The notes under the pieces were generated by a model. It saw only the letters and a program-made list of their open reading frames with translations. It was not told the DNA's origin and searched no databases. From an uncultured archaeon (GTDB lineage: Archaea > Thermoproteota > Nitrososphaeria > Nitrososphaerales > Gagatemarchaeaceae): DNA of 64,000 bases. Each line of letters opens with the position of its first letter. Positions within the stretch are counted from its first letter, which is position 1. Where the stretch lies: contig CAWCYD010000003.1 in the NCBI GenBank assembly GCA_963799775.1, positions 800,001 to 864,000 on the forward strand, in the 5' to 3' direction. The translations under genes and the position numbers were made by a program. Shown here one piece after another: positions 13,630 through 48,402 of this stretch.

Positions 13630-14341
13630 GGCACCCTCCTCAGGAACCTGAAGGTGAGGCCGGCCACCATCGCGCCCAGAAGCGGCCCTACGATGTAGAC
13701 CATCAGGTTCGCGTAGTAGCCCGAGAATAGCGAAGGCCCCAGGCTCCTGGCCGGGTTGAACGATGCGCCGGTCACACGGACCTATGAGCATGATCAGGAC
13801 GAAGAGCGTCGAACCGACGAGCGCCGCCTGCGCGACCGGCCGCTCCAAATGTGCCGAGGCTGTGAGGGCGGCGCACGCCAAGAGGAAATGTCCCTACCAT
13901 CTCGATGGCCACACCTGCGACCGGGCTGACCCCGGGTGCCAGACGCGTCGAACCGAGGAAGCTGGAGGCTGCCACGGTCCCGAGCGCCGTCTTGAGGACC
14001 AGGCCCGCTGCTAGGCCTCCGACAAGCTGGAAGACAAGGTAAGGGGCGACGAGCTCCTTCTTGGCCGACCCAGAGAAGCTGCTCGCGATCGTGATGGCGG
14101 GGTTGATGTGCGCGCCGGAAGACCGGCCAAAGGCCAGGATCATCGCCGCGACGGTGAGACCGAACACGGCCGAGACGAAGACAAGGCCGAGAATGGCCGG
14201 GAGGGACAAGAGAGAGGCGATGATGACAGAGGCGCACCCTACGAAGACGAGGGTGAACGTCCCTACCATCTCGGAGAGGAGCTCCTTCCGACGCCCGACC
14301 GAGGTGAGCGTCGAGAGACCCAGGGCCCTCGTCAAAATCAT
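13626..14341 (-). CDS. MIP-family aquaporin/aquaglyceroporin (two apparent frameshifts); start approximate
   Basis: E.VGTF, SGAHINPA and, in a shifted frame, TGASFNPARSLGP. Confidence 0.85.
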
Positions 14342-19613: not shown

Positions 19614-20522
19614 GTGGTCTCGAACACTTTGGACGAGGACGTTCTCATCATGGTCACGAACGACGACGGCGTGACCAGCCCCGGTATCATCGCCCTCGCC
19701 GACGCGGTCTCGGCCCTCGGCAGCGTCATGATCATAGCGCCCGACGGCGAGAAGAGCGCAGCCGGTATGAGCCTAACCTTTCACAGGCCTCTGCGCATCA
19801 CGAAGGTGCACGTGGGGAGGAGGGTCTGCTACGCGATCTCGGGAAGCCCGGCCGATTCGACCATGATAGGGATACACAACCTCCTTCCGAGGAGGCCAGA
19901 CGCCGTAGTCTCCGGGATCAACAAGGGGGAGAACCTCACCATCCAGGACATCTTCGCCTCGGGGACCGTGGCGGCGGCGCTCTCGGCGGCGCTGCTCGGG
20001 ATACCAGCCATCGCCTTCTCACTCGAGATCCCTGCTGGGAGGAACGTCATACATGGCAGGAATTAACCGGGGTTCGCCATCCCCGCGCGGATCGCCGCGG
20101 AGATGACCAGGGAGGTCTTGGAGCACGGGATGCCCAGAGGGGCGGAAATGCTGAACGTGAACTTCCCGTGGAAGACGAGCTGGGACACGAGGATCAAGAT
20201 CACGTCGCTCGAGGGGAGGAAGTGGAGGGACTCCGTCCTTGAGAGGGATGACCCGCGGGGCAGGCCCTACTACTGGCTCTGGGGCTCGAGGATGCCCCAC
20301 TTCAAGAAGAACTCCGACGCTTACGCGATCCACAAGGAAGGGGTGATCTCCGTCTCACCGCTCAACCTGGATTTCACAGCAAAGTCGACTCCGGAGATAA
20401 GGAAGTTCGAGACGAGGGTGACTTCGAGGCTGAAGGAGATGGCCGAGACCGTCGATAGCAGGCATAAAGGTTCTACTGCATCGAACGTCCGGCGTGATGC
20501 AGTTTCGAGGCATCGACTCTGA
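19614..20522 (+). CDS. surE: 5'/3'-nucleotidase SurE (frameshift near 20062; 3' end invaded by a TnpB element)
   Basis: VTNDDG, GSPADS, SGINKGEN, SGTVAAA, LNVNFP and DPRGRPYYW. Confidence 0.92.
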
Positions 20523-20620
20523 GGATTAGCGGCTCTCCTACGTATTCCGCTGTCCCCTTCATTGCTTCTCTTGCCTCGCCTTCTTTCTGTTGCGAACTGT
20601 CGAACCTCAACCGCCCTCTT
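20450..20620 (-). ncRNA. Putative omegaRNA (scaffold plus ~20 nt guide) of TnpB element A
   Basis: Nucleotide blocks conserved across three copies: GGGCGGTTGAGGTTCGAC, GGCGAGGCA, TAATCCTC.GAGTCGATGCCTCGAA, AGAACC. Confidence 0.7.
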
Positions 20621-21741
20621 CTGGAGATGTTGAGAACAGCGACTGTATCCCGTTCCCACCATCTTCTGCATGTCGGGCACCACAACTGGCGATAGTGCTC
20701 AAGATCGTCTCGGACGGCCTCTTGGAGTCTCTCCCCGCATCGAGGACAATCCATTGTAGTGCGCCTCGTTTCTCTCTTTGATAGCGTGACTACGGGAACC
20801 TCTTCCCATGCTGCCTTGTACTCTACTTGCCTCTTCACTTCGCGGAAGGGCCATGAATTCATTCTTGCTCTGAACTTCTTTCCTTGGCCGTTTCCTTTAC
20901 GATAGAGGCTGCGAATGCCACTGATTTCTTCGAAGACTATGGCTTCGTGGTTTGCCTTGGCATCGACTACGATCTCCTTCGTGACTGCATGAATGATTTG
21001 CCTTATTCTCTGAGTCTGTCTCTTGCCATATTTTGATGCAATTTGTCGTCGAATTCTCGAGTCATTCCGCTTAAATGATGCCACGATATTTCGGGTCGTC
21101 TCGGCGATCTCAACAGCTCTTGTGACGTCGAAGTAGGTTACCTTCTTACTATTTCCAGCAGTAACGTTGCGAACATTTCTGTCAATTCCCACGAAATCAG
21201 TGATGCCTGAATTTGTCTTGACCTCTTTCGAGTAGGAGATAGAAACAGACGTTAGCGTCAACGTGAAGGATCTAATCTTCACGGTTGGGTCTGATAATAT
21301 GATGTTCTGAGTATGGGGGCTCAGAGGAATATACTCAGAACGCCCTGCCGCCAGCGGAACTCTGAGCTTGCCGTCCTGAATCTTCAAGCTGTAACACGAG
21401 ATGATGAATGGCTTTGATACGTAAGGAATCTTGGTTCGCATTCCTCTCTTGATCGATTTTCGTCGAGCCGAGAGTATTCCTGAGGCTTTTGTTATCGCAG
21501 TCAGCCGATACTGCGAATAGAACATATACCTACTCAGACGAGGGTAGCAAAGGAACGACAGCCTCTTCCTGGAAGCCGCTAGACCACTCTCGGTCTCGAA
21601 CTTCAGTGCTTCCCGGATGCACTCGTTAACCATTCGGCGAAAGTCCTCGAGAAGAGCGAGCATACTCGAGGTCGGGACGTAGTTTTGCTTGACTGCCTTG
21701 AAGGCTCGCACATCATCACAGATGGTGCCACTATTTCAGCG
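20470..21741 (-). mobile_element. Transposase-less TnpB element A (Cas12f-like clade)
   Basis: Left motif ATGGG|CGCTGAAATAG 30 bp before ATG; right end ...hairpin-AGAAC(C) shared with the copies at 30 kb and 45 kb. Confidence 0.75.
20473..21711 (-). CDS. tnpB: RNA-guided endonuclease TnpB
   Basis: RuvC GIDRN / IVFEE / RDTVAVLNI intact; CPRC..CPTC zinc finger. Confidence 0.92.
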   Translation of the reverse strand: MRAFKAVKQNYVPTSSMLALLEDFRRMVNECIREALKFETESGLAASRKRLSFLCYPRLSRYMFYSQYRLTAITKASGILSARRKSIKRGMRTKIPYVSKPFIISCYSLKIQDGKLRVPLAAGRSEYIPLSPHTQNIILSDPTVKIRSFTLTLTSVSISYSKEVKTNSGITDFVGIDRNVRNVTAGNSKKVTYFDVTRAVEIAETTRNIVASFKRNDSRIRRQIASKYGKRQTQRIRQIIHAVTKEIVVDAKANHEAIVFEEISGIRSLYRKGNGQGKKFRARMNSWPFREVKRQVEYKAAWEEVPVVTLSKRETRRTTMDCPRCGERLQEAVRDDLEHYRQLWCPTCRRWWERDTVAVLNISRRGRLRFDSSQQKEGEAREAMKGTAEYVGEPLILRVDASKLHHAGRSMQ

Positions 21742-21816
21742 CCCATGAGCCGAAGCAGGGACAGACCAGAAGCATAAATAGTAATCCAGCACACGCGAAC
21801 TCGTAGACGCTTCCCA

Positions 21817-22425: not shown

Positions 22426-24249
22426 ATGGTTCACAGGGTAGCTGGGCTAGACGACAATCTTTGTCACTCCGACAAGTGCGGCCTAGAGTGCATCAAGAAC
22501 TGCCCGGTGAACATCAACGGGGACGAGTGCATCATCCTCGGGGAGGAGAAGCTCGCGGTCATCTCCGAACAGCTCTGCATCGGGTGCGGCATCTGCGTCA
22601 AGGTCTGTCCTTTCGACGCGATCACTATACTCAACCTGAGCGAGGAGCTCCAGGAGGAGAAGATCCACCAGTACGGCATCAACACTTTCAGGCTCTATCG
22701 CCTCCCCACCCCCCGAAGGGGGCAGGTCGTCGGGCTCGTCGGGAGGAACGGGACAGGCAAGTCCACGGCCCTCCAGATCCTCTCTGGGCAGCTGGTCCCC
22801 AATCTCGGTGACTACGAGCACCCCGCGAGCTGTGGCCTGCTGCTAAAGTATCTGAGCGGGAAGGAGCTCAAGGAGCACTTCGAGAAGGTCGCGAGAGGAG
22901 AGGTCAAGATCTCCCTCAAGCCACAGGCCGTCTACAAGCTGCCTGAGGTCTGGAAGAAGGACGTCTCCTCGTTGCTCACGAAGATGGACGAGACGGGTGA
23001 CAAGGAGAGAGTCGTAGAGGCGCTCGGCCTCCACGAAGCCCTGGAGAAGAACGTCGGAGAATTGAGCGGAGGCGAGCTCCAGAGGGTCGCGATAGCGGTA
23101 GCGGCCTTGAAGGACGCGGACATGTATCTCTTCGACGAGCCCTCTTCCTTCAACGACGTATACCAGAGGCTCGCGGTCTCGAAGCTCATCCGCTCGATCG
23201 CCGAGAGGAACAAGTACGTGGTCCTCGTCGAGCACGACATCACCTTCCTTGACTACGCAAGCGACTACGTCCAGATACTCCACGGGGAACCCGGCGTCTA
23301 CGGGATCGTCTCCTCGCTCTACCCTTCGAGAAGCGGCATCAACGCGCTCCTGGAGGGGTTCCTGCCCAACGAGAACACCAGGTTCAGGGACAAGAGCGTA
23401 ACCTTCGATGTCACCACGAGCGTCGAGGCCCAGCAGTCGGAGGAGGTTGTCGCCAGATATGGCGAGCTGAGAAAGTCGTTCCCGGGGTTCGAACTGGACG
23501 TCAAGGCGGGAGAGATGACGGCCGGGACCATCTTCGGCGTGATAGGCGCGAACGCGCTCGGCAAGACGACCTTCCTGAAGGTGCTCGCGGGGGAGGAGAA
23601 GCCCGACTCTGGCGGGGTGAGCCTGGGCGTGAGGATCGCCTTGAAGCCGCAGTATCTCAAGGCCGACTACCCGGGGACCGTCCAGGAGTTCATCAACGAG
23701 AAGGTGGGGAAAGGTTTCGACGACACCAACCTCCAGACATACCTCGCCGGGCCCTTGAGGATAGAGAAGCTCTTCGCCCGGGAGGTCTCCGACCTCAGCG
23801 GCGGTGAGCTGCAGAAGCTAGCGATAATCTCGACCTTCGCCGCCGAGGCAGACATGTACGCGCTGGACGAGCCGTCGGCCTTCGTGGACGTGGAGGACAG
23901 GTTCGTGATAGCCAAGGCGATGGGGAGGCTGGTGAAGGCGAGGGGAAAGACCGCCGTGATCATCGACCACGACATCCAGCTCCTGGACCTGATCTCGGAC
24001 AGGATGATCGTCTTCACCGGCGACCCAGGCAGGAAGGGCTCGGCGACGTCGCCGCTGGGCAAGGAGGAGGGGATGAACACGTTCCTCAGCGAGATCGGTC
24101 TCACCTACCGCCGCGACATCAAGAGCCGCAGGCCCAGGGTGAACAAGCCCGACAGCAAGAGGGACAGAGAGCAGAAGGAGACGGGCCAATACTACTACGC
24201 CGCGAGGCAGGGGCAGCCCGAGGGGGAGGAAGAGGAGGCGGAGGCTTGA
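22426..24249 (+). CDS. ABCE1/RLI ribosome recycling ATPase
   Basis: N-terminal Fe-S motifs (C..C...C...CP, CIGCGICVKVCP), two ABC domains, RPRVNK..S..DREQK. Confidence 0.97.
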   Translation: MVHRVAGLDDNLCHSDKCGLECIKNCPVNINGDECIILGEEKLAVISEQLCIGCGICVKVCPFDAITILNLSEELQEEKIHQYGINTFRLYRLPTPRRGQVVGLVGRNGTGKSTALQILSGQLVPNLGDYEHPASCGLLLKYLSGKELKEHFEKVARGEVKISLKPQAVYKLPEVWKKDVSSLLTKMDETGDKERVVEALGLHEALEKNVGELSGGELQRVAIAVAALKDADMYLFDEPSSFNDVYQRLAVSKLIRSIAERNKYVVLVEHDITFLDYASDYVQILHGEPGVYGIVSSLYPSRSGINALLEGFLPNENTRFRDKSVTFDVTTSVEAQQSEEVVARYGELRKSFPGFELDVKAGEMTAGTIFGVIGANALGKTTFLKVLAGEEKPDSGGVSLGVRIALKPQYLKADYPGTVQEFINEKVGKGFDDTNLQTYLAGPLRIEKLFAREVSDLSGGELQKLAIISTFAAEADMYALDEPSAFVDVEDRFVIAKAMGRLVKARGKTAVIIDHDIQLLDLISDRMIVFTGDPGRKGSATSPLGKEEGMNTFLSEIGLTYRRDIKSRRPRVNKPDSKRDREQKETGQYYYAARQGQPEGEEEEAEA

Positions 24250-30016: not shown

Positions 30017-30210
30017 CCGCGATTTTAACCCTAGCGGTTCTGTTAGGTTCTCTGGACAAGCATTTCCGCAAATCCATTCGTACCTAACTTCGAGGCATCG
30101 ACTCTGAGGATTACCGGCTCTTCTTGTTGAGAGCTCCATTCTTTCAGCGGGTTCCCCTTCACCGCTTCAACTGCCTCGCCTTGCGAACGGTCGAACCTCA
30201 ACCGCCCCCT
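30017..30210 (-). ncRNA. Putative omegaRNA of TnpB element B
   Basis: Same conserved scaffold blocks as element A. Confidence 0.7.
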
Positions 30211-31373
30211 ACGTGAGATGTTCATGACAGCAACCACATCCCTGTCTGTCCATCTCTCGCACTTTTGACACCATAGCTGCCTGTAGTGTTCCTCATCTTC
30301 TCTAGATGCCACTTGGAGTCTCTCCCCGCATCGTGGACAATCCATAGTCGTACCTCGCGTCTCACTCTTGGTAAGAGTGATCACTGGCACCTTACCATCC
30401 TCCCATGCAGCCTTGTATTCGACCTGCCTCTTCAACTCGCCCCATGGAGCAGAGTTCATCCTGCCTCTGTACTCCCGTCCCTGCCCATTCCCCTTGCGAT
30501 AGAGGTTCCTGATGTCTTTGATGTCCTCGAAGACGATCGCCTGACGGTTCTCACTGGCCCTGGAGACGATGTCCTTTGAGACGCGATGCAGAATTTGGTT
30601 CACCCTTTCCTTACGCCTTTTACCATACTTCTCGAAGATCTTCTTTCTGATTCTCACGTCATTCCTCTTGAAGGAGCCGACGATGCTCCTCGTGTTATGC
30701 GCTATCTCGACTGCCTTTGAGATGTCATAGTGGATGACCCGCTCTTCATCTCCGACTGTGATGTTTCTCAGGTTTCTGTCGACCCCGACGAACCCATTGA
30801 CTTCAATTTCATGCCCTTGCTTGTCAGTCTGCTTCGCCACGCACAGTGACAAAGAATCGCCTGTCAATGTGAAGGAGCGGACGGTCACCCGCGGCTTTTG
30901 CGATAATGCCTCGAGCGTGTGCGCGTTGAGAGATATCTTCTCGAATTGGCGTTCGCCGACTGGTATGAGCAGGAAGCCATCTGTCATCTTGAACCCGTAG
31001 CACGAGACGAGGACGGGTCTTGAGACGTACGGATCCTTTGTTCGAAACCCTCTCCTCATCGATTTCCGTCTGGCTGCTAGTATGCCAGCTGCCTTGGATA
31101 TCGCGCAAAGGGTGATTCCGGAGTACCCACCATGGCGGGCCCTGAGCTCTTTGTAGGCAAGAAGCGAGAGCTTCTTCATCGAGGGAGTCCTACCTTCATT
31201 GTTCTGCCGCTCGAATTCTAGTCCGATTCGGATGCAGTCGTTGGTCATCTGGCGGAAGTTCTCCATCAGAGATAGGAGGTTGGGGTTCGGCTCTACGGCT
31301 AACCTTTGCCTGATTGATTTCCTTACGACGGACCTGCGACAACGCGCCAATAATTTGGCTGACTACTTAACCG
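30037..31373 (-). mobile_element. Transposase-less TnpB element B (Cas12f-like clade)
   Basis: Left motif ATGGG|CGGTTAAGTAG; right end GTTAGGT..ACCTAAC hairpin then AGAAC(C). Confidence 0.75.
30043..31350 (-). CDS. tnpB: RNA-guided endonuclease TnpB
   Basis: RuvC GVDRN / IVFED / RDVVAVMNI; CPRC..CQKC. Confidence 0.92.
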   Translation of the reverse strand: MARCRRSVVRKSIRQRLAVEPNPNLLSLMENFRQMTNDCIRIGLEFERQNNEGRTPSMKKLSLLAYKELRARHGGYSGITLCAISKAAGILAARRKSMRRGFRTKDPYVSRPVLVSCYGFKMTDGFLLIPVGERQFEKISLNAHTLEALSQKPRVTVRSFTLTGDSLSLCVAKQTDKQGHEIEVNGFVGVDRNLRNITVGDEERVIHYDISKAVEIAHNTRSIVGSFKRNDVRIRKKIFEKYGKRRKERVNQILHRVSKDIVSRASENRQAIVFEDIKDIRNLYRKGNGQGREYRGRMNSAPWGELKRQVEYKAAWEDGKVPVITLTKSETRGTTMDCPRCGERLQVASREDEEHYRQLWCQKCERWTDRDVVAVMNISRRGRLRFDRSQGEAVEAVKGNPLKEWSSQQEEPVILRVDASKLGTNGFAEMLVQRT

Positions 31374-40494: not shown

Positions 40495-41825
40495 ATACGA
40501 GCGAGAAAACCCACGTGCTTCAGCCGTGGGATGAAAGCGAGCGTGGGGGCTTAAATATGGTAAGACGACAGTATGATGTGCCCGTAGCTCTCCGCTTCCG
40601 ACTCTATCCGACGGGCAAGGAGGAGAGGAAGATGCTTTGCACCCTCGAAGCGACGAGACATCTCTGGAACGATGCGCTCGCGCACAGAAAGGCGAGATGG
40701 GAATCAAACAAGAGATCGACGTCATACAACATGCAGGCGGCAGTACTCACATCGGAACGCAAGGAAATCGCAGAGCTAGGTGGCCTGCACTCCCAGGTCG
40801 GTCAGGACGTCCTGAGGAGGCTCGACAAGGCCTTCAGATCGTTCTTCGCGCAGCGCGCTGGCTATCCGAGGTTCAAGAAGCGCTCGACTGCTGGCTCCTT
40901 CACGTATCCCCAGGCCTACAACCGGTCAGCGAAGCCCGATGTTCCGAGACGGAGGCTCTATCTCTCAAAGATCGGCAACATCAGGACCGTCTTTCACCGG
41001 CCGCTCCCGAAGGACGCGCTCCTGAAGACGTGCACCGTGGTGAGGGAGCCAGACGGCAAGTGGTTTGCATCGCTCGTCTTCGAGGACATCCTGCCGTTGC
41101 AGAACATCATGACGAGATTCGTCTCGCCGGTCGGCATCGACCTCGGCCTAAAGTCGCTGATAGTCACGAGCGACGGCACGGAGGTAGAGCACCCACGATT
41201 TCTCAGAAGAGCGGAGAAGAGACTCAAACACCTTCAGCGAGCATTCTCTCGCAAGAAGAAGGGCTCGAAGAACAGGTTCAAGGCCAGAAAGAGGGTCGCG
41301 GCGCAGCACGCCAAGGTCAGGAGGCAGCGTACGGACTTGAACCACAAGCTCTCGACGGCGCTCGTGAGACGGCACGACCTCCTCGCCTTCGAGGACCATT
41401 CGCATCAGGAACCTGGTGCGGAACCACAAGCTGGCAAAGTCCATCCATGACGCTGGATGGGGTCAGCTCGTGAGGCTCGCGGAGTACAAGGCGCTCTCAA
41501 AGGGGAAGCGCGTAGTCAGAGTCGATTCCGCGTACTCGACCCAGGAGTGCTTCCATTGCGGCGCGCTCAACAAGATCGATCTCGACGTACGAGAGTTCGA
41601 CTGCATCGGTTGTCGTCGCCATCTCAGACGCGACCACAACGCGTCGTGCATCGTGCTGAAGCGAGGACTCGCAATGGTAGGGCAGGGCATGCCCGAACTC
41701 AAGCCTGTGGAGATGGAACCTCTACTCGTCCAGACAACTGGGCGAGCAAGCTCTATCTGTGAAGCAGGAACTACACGCCCGCAAGGGCTGGAATCCCACG
41801 GCCAAATGCCGTGGGAGGATGTCAC
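40495..41825 (+). mobile_element. IS200/IS605 (IS1341-type, tnpB-only) element
   Basis: Preceded by TCAC; left hairpin CCCACG..CGTGGG 40510-40530; right hairpin TCCCACGGC..GCCGTGGGA 41794-41816; ends GGATGTCAC. Confidence 0.85.
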
Positions 41826-44908: not shown

Positions 44909-45415
44909 ATGCAAAAGTCGATCCTAGGGAGCACGGGGGATTATACTCTGAGATACGCCGAAGGCTCCGACGTCCCTAGCGTCATCAAGGTCAACGCAGA
45001 GACGCTACCCGAGCACTACTCGGAGTACTTCTACTACGAGGTCCTGAACGAGTTCCCTGAGACGTTCATCGTCGCGCAGCTGGGCAACGAGATAGTCAGC
45101 TACATCATGTGCAGGATAGAGTACGGGCTCTCCGTGATGAAGAGGTTCGGGCTTGCGAGGAAGGGGCACATCATCTCCATCGCCACGATGCCCCCGCACA
45201 GAGGGAAGGGCGTGGGGACGGCGCTTATCCAGAGGACGATGGAAGAGATGAAGAAAGGAGGGTGCAGGGAGGTGTTCCTGGAGGTCAGAGTCACGAACGA
45301 CGACGCCGTGAGGCTCTACGGTAAGCTGGGGTTCCAGGTGACCGGGACGATGCAGGGCTACTACAAGGACGGCGAGTCCGCCTACCTCATGGCGCAGCAG
45401 CTCGGTTCTACATAG
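44909..45415 (+). CDS. rimI: RimI/Ard1-family N-acetyltransferase
   Basis: LPEHY, GHIISIA, RGKGVG, LEVRVTN and YYKDGE.AYLM. Confidence 0.93.
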   Translation: MQKSILGSTGDYTLRYAEGSDVPSVIKVNAETLPEHYSEYFYYEVLNEFPETFIVAQLGNEIVSYIMCRIEYGLSVMKRFGLARKGHIISIATMPPHRGKGVGTALIQRTMEEMKKGGCREVFLEVRVTNDDAVRLYGKLGFQVTGTMQGYYKDGESAYLMAQQLGST

Positions 45416-45550
45416 TCTCCCTAGGGAGACGCAGCTTCGAGGCATCGACTCGGAGGATTAGCGGCTCCCCTTCGTGTTCCACGTTCCCCTTCATTGCTTC
45501 ACTTGCCTCGCCTTTCTTCCTCGAACGGTCGAACCTCAACCGCCCCCTCT
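45385..45550 (-). ncRNA. Putative omegaRNA of TnpB element C
   Basis: Same conserved scaffold blocks as elements A and B. Confidence 0.7.
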
Positions 45551-46685
45551 GGGAGATATTCATGACCGCGACCACATCACGGTCTTGCCATCTCCCGCAG
45601 ACACGACACCACAAGTGGCGATAGTGATCGCCATCGTCACGTCTTGCCGCTTGGAGTCTCTCCCCGCATCGCGGACAATCCATTGTAGTGCCGCTCGTTT
45701 CACTTCTGGAAAGAGTGAGGGTCGGAATCCCCGCCCACCCTGCCTTGTATTCAATCTGCGTTTTCAATTCTCCGAAAGGCCACGAATTCATTTCGGCCCT
45801 GTATCTTCTGCCTCGCGGGTTCCTCTTCGAGTAGAGTCCCCTGATTCCCCTAAGATCCTCGAAGACGATTGCCCCCCTTTCCTCTGTGGCTAATTCGACA
45901 ATCCTTCTTGAGATGAGGTGCAAGAACTGCTTCACCCGGTTAGCCCTGCGGCGGCCGTACTTTGAGCGAATTTGTTGTCCTATCCTGGCATCGTTTCGTC
46001 TGAAAGAGCGAACTATCGCCCGTGTGTTTTCCCCGATGTCGACGATGGGCCCCATCTCGAAGCGAAACACCTTCCTATGATTACCGACCGTCACGTTGCG
46101 AAGGTTTCGGTCGATTCCGATGCAATCGTTGACGTCTAGGGCGGGGATTTCACTGGTTTCTTTGGCAATCGTTATGCAAAGAGACTCGGGTGTCAAGGCG
46201 AACGAACGGATTTTCGTTGACGGGTCGGACAGCGCTGAAATTGTGTGGGGGCTCAAAGATATCGATTCAAATTTGTCGGAATCAACATGAAAGATGAGAG
46301 CCTGACCCTCGACCTTGAAGCCGAAGCACGAGACAAGCAGAGGTCTCTTGACATAAGGACTTGAGGTCGGGAAGCCTCTCCTGATTGACTTCTTTCGTGA
46401 GGCCAGGATTCCGGCTGCCATTGATGAAGCGCAAGAGGCGTAACTGGCATATCCACCATACCGGCTCCGAATTTGTCTGTACGAAAGAGACGAGAGTTTT
46501 TTCATCGAAGGGGTCTGATTATCAGCAGATGTCTTTTCACATTCCAACCCGATCCGAATGCAGTCATTGACCATCTGCCGAAAGTCCTCCATGAGTCGAA
46601 GGCTTTCGGCGGTCGGTAGGAACCTCTGTTTGATTCCCTTTAGAACACGGGCCACAGGATTAAAATCGGCATTGCCCTATAAGCG
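45405..46685 (-). mobile_element. Transposase-less TnpB element C (Cas12f-like clade), inserted in the rimI 3' end
   Basis: Left motif GTGGG|CGCTTATAGG 30 bp before GTG; right end GTCTCCC-TA-GGGAGAC hairpin then AGAAC(C); removal restores a rimI stop overlapping the lig start. Confidence 0.8.
45408..46655 (-). CDS. tnpB: RNA-guided endonuclease TnpB
   Basis: RuvC GIDRN / IVFED / RDVVAVMNI; CPRC..CRVC. Confidence 0.92.
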   Translation of the reverse strand: MARVLKGIKQRFLPTAESLRLMEDFRQMVNDCIRIGLECEKTSADNQTPSMKKLSSLSYRQIRSRYGGYASYASCASSMAAGILASRKKSIRRGFPTSSPYVKRPLLVSCFGFKVEGQALIFHVDSDKFESISLSPHTISALSDPSTKIRSFALTPESLCITIAKETSEIPALDVNDCIGIDRNLRNVTVGNHRKVFRFEMGPIVDIGENTRAIVRSFRRNDARIGQQIRSKYGRRRANRVKQFLHLISRRIVELATEERGAIVFEDLRGIRGLYSKRNPRGRRYRAEMNSWPFGELKTQIEYKAGWAGIPTLTLSRSETSGTTMDCPRCGERLQAARRDDGDHYRHLWCRVCGRWQDRDVVAVMNISQRGRLRFDRSRKKGEASEAMKGNVEHEGEPLILRVDASKLRLPRETM

Positions 46686-46713
46686 CCCACACGCTCCGAG
46701 AATTGACGACCTT

Positions 46714-48402
46714 TTGAATTCGAGTACCCCGTTCCTCGAGCTCGCGGAGGCCCTCGAGAAGGTCAGGCTGACGAGGGGAAAGAACGACAAGGTCTCGACG
46801 CTGGCGGCGCTACTCGCGAAGCTCAAGGGCGAAGACGAGGTCGAGTTCACCGCCCGCTTCGCCGCCGGGAGGTCGACGCGAAAGGGGAGCGAGGACGAGA
46901 CCCAGGTGGGATACTCGACGCTGGTCGACGTGCTGCGGGAGACGACGGGGGTCACCGAGTCAGAGCTGGGCAAGAGCTACCTCAAGCACGGTGGCCTCAG
47001 CGAGACCTTCGCGGAGTTCATCGGGAGGAGGAAGGAGGCGACCCTCTTCGACGGCCAGGGGGCGGGCCTGAGCATTCTGGACGTGGCGTCGACGTTCGAG
47101 AGGATCACGGCCGCGCACGGGAAGGGGTCGAGCGGGCTGAAGAAGGAGCTGGTGAAGTCGCTCATCCTGAGGAGCCAGACGCCCCTGGAGGCGAAGTACA
47201 TCGTCAAGATCCTGAGCAAGGAGATGAGGATAGGGCTGGTCGAGGGACTGGTCGAAGAGGCCGTCGCCCAGGCCTTCGGCGGGGAGCTGGGGAGGGAGAA
47301 GGTGAAGGAGGCGTACCTCATGCTGGGGGACATCGGCCTCCTCGCCCGGGAGGCGAAGGGGGGCCGTCTCGCGGATGTCAGGATAGAGCCGATGCGCCCG
47401 ACCAACTTCATGCTCGCCGAGCCGATGGCCTCCCCCGAGGAGATCGCGGAGTACTTCAAGGAGAGCGAGCTCTACGCCGAGTACAAATACGACGGCGTGA
47501 GGGCACAGGTCCACAAGAAAGGGGGAGAGGTGAGGGTCTTCTCGAGGCGTCTCGAGGACATCACCTCCAGCTTCCCGGAGGTGGTCGAGGCCGTCAAGGC
47601 CTCGGTGCACGACCTGATACTCGACGGCGAGATAGTGGCGTTCGACGAGGAGAAGGGGCCGCTCTCGTTCCAACTCTTGCAGCGGAGGCTGAGGCGCGCG
47701 GACACGGGAGAGTCCATGCGCATCGCACCGGTGAGCTACTTTTGCTTCGACGTCCTCTACATCGACGGGAAGAGGGTCACGGACGAGCCGTTCCACAAGA
47801 GGCGCGCGATGCTCTGGAAGGTGCTGGAGGGGACGAGCATCAAGCGCGCGGACACCACGACCGTCAGGACGGCCGAGGAGATTGCCGACTACTTCAGACA
47901 GAGCAGGTCCCTCGGCTACGAGGGTCTGGTCCTCAAGGAGGCCTCGAGCCCCTACACGCCAGGGAGGCGGGGCAGGTACTGGGCGAAGCTCAAGGAGGAG
48001 CTGGACACCCTCGACGTGGTGATAGTCGCCGCCGAGTTCGGGCACGGGAAGAGGGCCGGGAAGATCAGCGACTACACCTTCGCTGTGAGGGACGGCGCCT
48101 CCCTCAAGGTCATCGGGAAGGCCTACTCGGGCCTCACCGACAAGGAGATCGACGAGATGATGGTCAGGATAAAGAGGCTCACGGAGGGGAAGGTGGACTA
48201 CAGGATGGCCGTGAGGCCCGAGCTGGTCCTGGAGGTCGCGTTCGACAGCATCCAGAAGAGCGACAGGCACGACAGCGGCTACGCGCTCAGGTTTCCGAGG
48301 ATAAAGCGGATCAGGGACGACAAGAGCGTCGCAGAGATAGACACGCTGGAGAGGGTCAGGGAGATCTACGAGGGTCAGAAGGTCAAGGCCGACGCCGCGT
48401 AG
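46714..48402 (+). CDS. lig: ATP-dependent DNA ligase
   Basis: EYKYDGVRAQ, LDGE, FDVLY, EGLVLK, W.KLK and LRFPRIKRIRDDK; probable TTG start at 46714. Confidence 0.95.
   Translation: MNSSTPFLELAEALEKVRLTRGKNDKVSTLAALLAKLKGEDEVEFTARFAAGRSTRKGSEDETQVGYSTLVDVLRETTGVTESELGKSYLKHGGLSETFAEFIGRRKEATLFDGQGAGLSILDVASTFERITAAHGKGSSGLKKELVKSLILRSQTPLEAKYIVKILSKEMRIGLVEGLVEEAVAQAFGGELGREKVKEAYLMLGDIGLLAREAKGGRLADVRIEPMRPTNFMLAEPMASPEEIAEYFKESELYAEYKYDGVRAQVHKKGGEVRVFSRRLEDITSSFPEVVEAVKASVHDLILDGEIVAFDEEKGPLSFQLLQRRLRRADTGESMRIAPVSYFCFDVLYIDGKRVTDEPFHKRRAMLWKVLEGTSIKRADTTTVRTAEEIADYFRQSRSLGYEGLVLKEASSPYTPGRRGRYWAKLKEELDTLDVVIVAAEFGHGKRAGKISDYTFAVRDGASLKVIGKAYSGLTDKEIDEMMVRIKRLTEGKVDYRMAVRPELVLEVAFDSIQKSDRHDSGYALRFPRIKRIRDDKSVAEIDTLERVREIYEGQKVKADAA

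Follow-up and report, generated by a model that had tools for sequence, protein, structure and literature searches.

A TnpB-only insertion sequence at the 3' end of archaeal rimI, and signs that the allele moved between lineages

Elements of the IS200/IS605 superfamily have asymmetric ends; inverted repeats and target duplications are not expected. The roles of the RuvC and zinc-ribbon motifs in TnpB proteins are familiar from the literature. Homing by TnpB and its omega-RNA is said, since Meers et al. in 2023, to keep a transposon at its donor site. Here we describe a TnpB-only insertion sequence (IS), copy C, which lies between rimI and lig in an uncultured archaeon of the Gagatemarchaeaceae. 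The window, i.e., the whole stretch of DNA that was analysed, comprises 64,000 nt (contig CAWCYD010000003.1, positions 800,001 to 864,000). It belongs to genome G000, which is 82% complete, and carries an archaeal gene set: Cdc48, class I LysRS, ABCE1, Trm5, and an ATP-dependent ligase. From sequence comparisons we favour, with moderate confidence, the view that copy C inserted between the last sense codon of rimI and its own stop in a formerly tight, non-overlapping gene pair, and that the resulting allele moved between lineages. The principal features, in window coordinates, are these.

44909 to 45415, plus strand: rimI-like GNAT acetyltransferase gene (PF00583; TIGR01575, 84.9 bits, cut-off 86.4).
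46655 to 45408, minus strand: tnpB, 415 amino acids (aa), GTG start (PF07282, E=1.7e-13; NCBIfam NF040570, 97.2 bits).
46714 to 48402, plus strand: lig, ATP-dependent DNA ligase gene, TTG start (PF04675, PF01068, PF04679; TIGR00574, 359.8 bits).
45404 to 46703, minus strand: TnpB-only IS, best estimate of its extent, 1,300 nt, from a comparison of the ends of 20 copies, the empty sites of copies A and E, and an alignment to the element-free allele L044.

The rimI-lig pair is conserved. In 29 of 30 genome loci lig lies directly 3' of rimI on the same strand, and the remaining locus ends at a contig edge. A first-pass annotation of the window had already recognized that the element interrupts this pair and provides rimI with a replacement stop (GST*), which is seen in both carriers of the insertion, G000 and a second genome, G018. 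In the window the native part of rimI extends up to CTC 45401-45403; the last three codons and the stop (45404-45415) are the right end of the element, and the protein terminates as ...AQQLGST* with TAG at 45413-45415. tnpB and rimI are convergent with an overlap of 8 nt (45408-45415), and the TAG stops of both strands lie within the right-end sequence CTATGTAGAACC. The proposed lig start, TTG 46714, agrees with two comparisons: in G018 the lig reading frame extends only 30 nt further upstream and has no in-frame start besides that TTG, and a homologous TTG is present in L044, the nearest empty allele.

Copy C resembles the IS1341 group of TnpB-only elements (IS200/IS605 superfamily, e.g., ISDra2). 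It has a TnpB of about 400 aa with a RuvC D-E-D triad and a zinc ribbon, and no transposase of its own. The triad (in GIDRN, FEDL, and DRD) and two CxxC pairs match their equivalents in alignments with 9j09_A and 9yyg_A. Matches in the PDB comprise TnpB and Cas12f chains, ISDra2 TnpB (8exa/8h1j) at E=6e-4. The TIGR01766 domain scores 59.4 bits, above its cut-off of 32. This TnpB falls just below the guided_TnpB cut-off of NF040570 (97.2 vs. 100 bits). As in the IS1341 group, the 3' end of the gene is covered by a predicted structured RNA that extends as far as the right end; in contrast, no conserved target-adjacent motif (TAM) is visible outside the left end in family copies. Equally unlike IS200/IS605, several family copies have an inverted terminal similarity of 20-25 nt and flanking duplications of 7-8 nt.

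Between the window and G018 the TnpB proteins are 84.3% identical without gaps; the genes diverge at about 13% of nucleotides with a ratio of nonsynonymous to synonymous substitution rates (dN/dS) of 0.20. Judged by its RuvC triad, its zinc ribbon, and this ratio, TnpB is intact and under purifying selection. Five copies of this TnpB subfamily (53-57% aa identity) are present in G000, together with more distantly related tnpB genes. Among 61 genomes of the family no tnpB exceeds 60% aa identity to copy C except the G018 twin. A search of G000 (82% complete, as noted) for Y1 TnpA (PF01797) returned no match, the controls having matched in 6 of 14 genomes; an IS200/IS605 transposition unit would call for such a Y1 TnpA in the genome.

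Two further comparisons are informative. PMC10691335 describes TnpBs that are associated with DDE transposases and flanked by inverted terminal repeats, as well as solo TnpBs that are mobilised in trans. What the present family has in common with these is a solo tnpB no more than about 250 bp from an end and the symmetric ends of several copies; copy C differs in having no inverted repeat. PMC4615843 reports sense-overlapping noncoding RNAs at the 3' end of archaeal IS1341-type tnpB genes. Here, too, a conserved RNA element lies over the 3' end of an archaeal tnpB, yet the archaeal group is a different one, and the scaffold in the window is a prediction from sequence.

45404 to 45550, minus strand: omega-RNA-like scaffold overlapping the 3' end of tnpB (RNAalifold).
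46677 to 46689, no strand assigned: TATA-like box (TATAAG/CTTATA) and TGGG motif (CCCA on the plus strand at 46686-46689), from conservation across copies.

The RNAalifold consensus of 17 copies has 31 pairs, 9 of them with compensatory changes. The scaffold closes with a copy-specific hairpin (45414-45432), then TATGTAGAACC. No Rfam family matches it. The last ~150 nt of the element are predicted to be a conserved omega-RNA-like scaffold. The variable 25-50 nt ahead of AGAAC were considered as a guide and rejected, as this stretch forms a covarying hairpin. At the other end the TATA-like/TGGG stretch is likely the tnpB promoter. Its left core, (Y/R)TGGG-CGC-TTAAATAG, is kept across copies, with an exact TGGG in 14 of 20 (by eye). 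The TATA-like box (46677-46684) lies 29 nt upstream of the lig TTG. Inside a stretch otherwise ~30% diverged, TATAAGCGCCCA is identical at 12 of 12 positions between G000 and G018.

What did the locus look like before insertion? Close element-free alleles with a visible RimI end number 23 (8 genomes and 15 metagenome contigs; RimI 76-86% identical). In 22 of them the stop follows directly after the codon homologous to CTC 45401-45403 (codon 165), in one it comes a codon later. The spacer between rimI and lig ranges from 15 to ~330 nt and usually measures 41-87 nt with a conserved CAATATAGG box. Two loci, L019 (in G013) and L054, have ~330 nt there instead of ~50. None of the 23 has a rimI/lig overlap; overlaps occur only in relatives at 50-60% identity. 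Contigs of a relative from run X1 leave the window sequence exactly after 45403 and continue with TAA.

L044 is the row nearest to the window in a RimI+Lig tree, and its ligase N-terminus (..PFLELAEALE) is window-like. Its junction reads CTC TAG cggtgg-CCGACC-gtc TTG TCG AG.., with a spacer of 15 nt, and the window sequence TGACGACCTTTTGAATTCGAG (46704 onward) aligns to this post-stop spacer. In L045 and L055 (G)ACGACC follows directly after the stop. Because all three alleles have it in this position, the window segment TGACGACC..TTG (46704-46716) would be native flank. Deleting 45404-46703 from the window gives the best alignment to L044 (score 76.5) and yields CTC|TGA, i.e., a RimI ending in QQL*, a 7-nt spacer and the lig TTG, with no overlap. 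The other clade of the genus has a like layout (TGA, 6-7 nt, ATG).

46704 to 46713, plus strand: probable original rimI stop TGA (46704-46706) and 7-nt native spacer CGACCTT, from the alignment to L044 and the ACGACC of L045 and L055.

The distribution of the insertion was unexpected. G018 has the element at the identical place with the same GST*, and the two genomes are colinear over 4.9 kb including the element, at 80.4% identity. Copies A, D, and E are absent from the corresponding G018 sites. The genes around the insertion, when compared with the empty alleles, do not pair the carriers. For rimI the nucleotide identity of G018 to the empties is 0.86-0.91, to G000 0.838, and that of G000 to the empties 0.80-0.84; for lig the corresponding values are 0.80-0.87, 0.772, and 0.75-0.78. 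G000 is equidistant to all compared alleles in both genes. In the RimI+Lig tree G018 nests among the empties, and the approximately unbiased (AU) test rejects a G000+G018 clade (p=0.0025). Synonymous divergence (dS) between the carriers is 0.44 in tnpB codons 1-340 (confidence interval, CI, 0.34-0.55) vs. 0.73 in the pooled flanking genes (CI 0.64-0.83). The G018 junction, with a short spacer and TTG AAT, is of the G000/L044 type; by about lig codon 11 (by eye) the sequence is that of its own clade again. Since the carriers are non-sister and their tnpB copies are younger than the flanking genes, lateral transfer is indicated. Read most simply, the insertion allele passed between non-sister lineages through recombination within the conserved 3' end of rimI and 5' end of lig.

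The limits of the element were approached through the family. AGAAC forms the right end in all 18 copies having that end, followed by C in 14, and the homology of copy A to eight empty sites breaks just before GGTTCT. The right end of copy C, as the earlier annotation also had it with AGAAC(C), is on these alignments at 45404, firm to within 1 nt. At the left end the conservation between copies begins at TGGG and the TATA-like box. In copy A (window 20469-21771), 26-30 extra inserted nt lie beyond TGGG, and a 7-nt duplication, TTTATGC, flanks the element. Of 29 distinct copies scored, six (B, E, L151, L158, L196, L207) have inverted terminal similarity of 20-25 nt with z of at least 4. Because inserted DNA, inverted-repeat similarity, and copies resembling miniature inverted-repeat transposable elements (MITEs) reach 12-30 nt beyond it, TGGG probably lies inside the left end rather than being a flanking TAM. 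The MITE-like copies in question, from G021, are conserved for ~30 nt past TGGG. The flanks outside the ends defined by inverted repeats have no common motif as a candidate TAM.

Family copies can have GGTTCT...AGAACC inverted terminal similarity, which in L207 is near-perfect over 25 nt (z 17). The G021 miniatures of ~260 nt (L182:1927-2183, L183:2013-2276, L184:1881-2144) are mutually 89-93% identical and consist of a left end fused to the omega-RNA/right-end region without tnpB; a fourth, more diverged one is in L185. Flanking 8-mers, compared by eye, agree at 8 of 8 positions in L151 (GCCTGAGA), 7 of 8 in A and 6 of 8 in E (L161 is copy E); B, C, L196, L199, L202, and L207 have no such duplication by the same comparison. 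Inverted ends and flanking duplications, noted among copy A, L151/L197, copy E, and L207, are unexpected for IS200/IS605 and suggest that a different transposase may mobilise the family. TGGG as a true TAM with an adjacent 8-nt target duplication (ACACGCTC vs. AGCAGCTC, 5 of 8) was also considered; the match is too weak and conflicts with copy A. Two further copies offered no empty site for comparison: copy B (window 30036-31373) sits at a synteny break and has no usable empty site, its flanks lying ~7 kb apart in opposite orientation in G008, and the flanks of copy D are too diverged for an empty-site comparison. Another family copy has a common insertion site in G016 (L146) and G022 (L147); both flanks are homologous and the upstream gene ends in ..YQLNAVKV.

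We propose the following sequence of events. A non-autonomous TnpB-only IS of 1.3 kb would have inserted antisense between CTC 45401-45403 and the most likely original stop, TGA 46704-46706. The rimI-lig pair would until then have been tight and probably co-transcribed, with a stop, a 7-nt spacer and TTG, without a TTGA overlap, and RimI would have ended in ...QQL*, as in relatives. The insertion allele, with its short native spacer and the lig TTG AAT start, would then have moved between two non-sister lineages by homologous recombination; cutting of empty alleles by TnpB (homing) may have helped its spread.

Several points weigh against this proposal. No inverted-repeat match was seen in copy C or its G018 twin (z -1.3 to 0.3), the left terminus being decayed or short. 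It is therefore uncertain in copy C, with 46685, 46703 and 46711 all possible and 46703 favoured. At the place of the proposed former TGA of the window G018 reads TCG, and the 28 nt between TGGG and lig are ~30% diverged between the carriers. Copies B and C both have CGTCAA(G)TTCT upstream of TGGG, which fits a left end extending to 46711 (QQLF* and a TTGA overlap). No element-free allele from the G000 lineage was found, the nearest having ~82-85% RimI identity, and no read joint across the element was seen, at low depth. The GC content at third codon positions is 0.60 in tnpB vs. 0.86-0.91, and composition could partly explain the lower tnpB dS. Finally, G000 and G018 are metagenome-type assemblies; a local chimera in G018 is unlikely.

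45385 to 45403, minus strand: flank that would act as omega-RNA guide (final 19 nt of native rimI, in reverse complement); its position comes from the sequence itself, its presumed role from the TnpB paradigm.

The part that homing may have played deserves attention. The flank-derived guide has 0-2 mismatches to 20 of 23 empty alleles. Homing is possible because the conserved 3' end of rimI in element-free species fits the guide, and we conjecture that TnpB-assisted homing into empty alleles may have aided the spread. The likeness to the homing of Meers et al. consists in this match and in the non-sister distribution, as homing plus recombination would give. Unlike theirs, the inference at rimI-lig is cross-species and purely comparative, and TGGG stands beside the target in no natural empty allele. 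On the TAM side the adjoining triplet complements the stop codon (TCA in 12 empties, CTA in 9, TTA in 1); alleles of the L018/L048 type, with TCA or CTA there, fit the guide without a mismatch. TGGG occupies the TAM position in 0 of 23. Tentatively one may go further. In this account a cross-species homing element whose guide is tied to the conserved final 19 nt of rimI would have cut the empty rimI-lig alleles of another lineage. Recombination would have copied it in with ~40 nt of donor spacer and the donor lig start, in place of the rimI stop, the lig promoter, and the ATG of the recipient. Since then it would have persisted intact (dN/dS 0.2) as one copy that can no longer transpose.

Vertical inheritance with repeated loss, i.e., an insertion that predates the whole clade without any transfer between lineages, is unlikely. 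The identical junctions of the carriers and the 13% divergence of their copies would suit an old event. It would need several independent losses, however, each recreating a stop after CTC and a common TATA-bearing spacer unlike the carriers' flank. The lower dS of tnpB, with a CI that does not overlap that of the flanks, the AU test, and a G018 junction of the G000/L044 type next to genes of the other type all argue against it.

Improbable to a like degree is a longer element of 45404-46711 with a terminus GGTCGTCAATTCT as in copy B, the excision of which would give a RimI ending in ...QQLF* and a TGA at 46715-46717 over the lig TTG, hence real coupling. The motif AAAG-(G/T)TC(C)GTCAA(G)TTCT upstream of TGGG is indeed common to B and C, and in B pairs with the right end (z 5.6). 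Yet (C)CGACC is native post-stop spacer in L044, L045, and L055, this boundary gives the worst alignment to L044 (68.5), and QQLF* is found in no relative.

The excision model of the first-pass annotation, an element at 45405-46685 with TGGG as TAM and AGAAC as right end, is very unlikely. Its arithmetic is correct: joining 45404 to 46686 (CTC-G-CCCACACG) extends RimI to ...QQLAHTLRELTTF (full join ...MAQQLAHTLRELTTF), with TGA 46715-46717 over TTG 46714-46716, and the guide it quoted corresponds to the 20 nt that follow AGAAC on the minus strand. Conservation between copies runs from TGGG to AGAAC. An overlap was a reasonable idea a priori because distant relatives often have one: in 30 of 64 distant metagenome loci the lig alignment begins 4 nt before the end of rimI, with ATGA directly seen only in L023. 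The TTGA overlaps cited from elsewhere in the window hold in part. One is present at ABCE1/trm5 (24246-24249), with an in-frame ATG two codons on; at MIP/LMWPc the sequence is GTGA instead (13772-13775), by crude calls of open reading frames (ORFs).

The rest did not withstand comparison. The restored C-terminus AHTLRELTTF* and the TTGA overlap are found in 0 of 23 close empties, and all 23 differ from the predicted junction. G018 has TTT instead of TTTT and so no TGA in the proposed frame. L044, which marks CGACC..TTG as native, aligns worse to this join (71.5). Against TGGG as the left boundary stand the empties, none of which has it at the TAM position, and the inserted DNA that extends farther out in copy A, the inverted-repeat copies and the MITE-like minis. 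The overlap had been offered as independent support for the boundaries. Enumeration of 58 boundary pairs (2 right ends by 29 left ends) gives TGA 46715 in 19, TGA 46704 in 13, and a RimI-Lig read-through fusion in 26; given the frame, the probability of no earlier stop is 0.80, and the chance of the pattern is ~0.26, roughly 1 in 4. The guide match to the reconstructed empty allele is true by construction and thus circular. One soil-metagenome run held part of the locus (share 0.13); it gave no junction-bridging contig and no element-skipping joint, its depth being low and uninformative on excision. On these comparisons the observation is numerically correct and no better than chance; extended RimI, TTGA coupling, and TGGG boundary are not borne out. 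Where the ends of an IS are known no more closely than to a few nucleotides, a restored ORF is weak evidence for its boundaries.

Domestication as an immobile TnpB with a host function at a fixed locus, e.g., an omega-RNA antisense to the rimI 3' end or the left-end TATA as a lig promoter, is very unlikely: it would suit a single copy without a relative above 60% aa identity beyond the twin and without a recognisable left inverted repeat, the dN/dS of 0.20, and the invariant TATAAGCGCCCA at 29-30 nt from TTG, which resembles the TATA-to-start spacings of 23-33 nt in 5 empties (by eye), yet the catalytic triad is intact and purifying selection is equally expected of a homing element. To our knowledge, the exapted TnpBs described so far differ from copy C in this respect, its triad being intact.

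Under the favoured proposal, insertion and transfer of the allele, there are consequences for annotation and expression. The insertion turns the RimI C-terminus into LGST*. It would remove whatever tied lig expression to rimI, leaving the ligase reliant on read-through across the antisense tnpB or on the left end of the element. Few comparative data bear on a spread between genomes with the help of TnpB, and the rimI-lig allele offers a concrete natural case, amenable to the bench: common to non-sister species, younger than its flanks, and with a guide that still matches most empties.

Some observations touch the neighbourhood. An ORF of 311 aa at 40515-41450 has HTH_OrfB_IS605 and OrfB_IS605 domains with no TNB/zinc-ribbon match, and probably represents a truncated tnpB from a different family. 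Where neighbouring alleles have the ATG of lig, the metagenome loci L041-L043, L045, and L046 read ACG, and TTG starts are present in L044, L046, and the window. In the clade of L041-L046 and the window the ligase start seems to shift or to use non-ATG codons.

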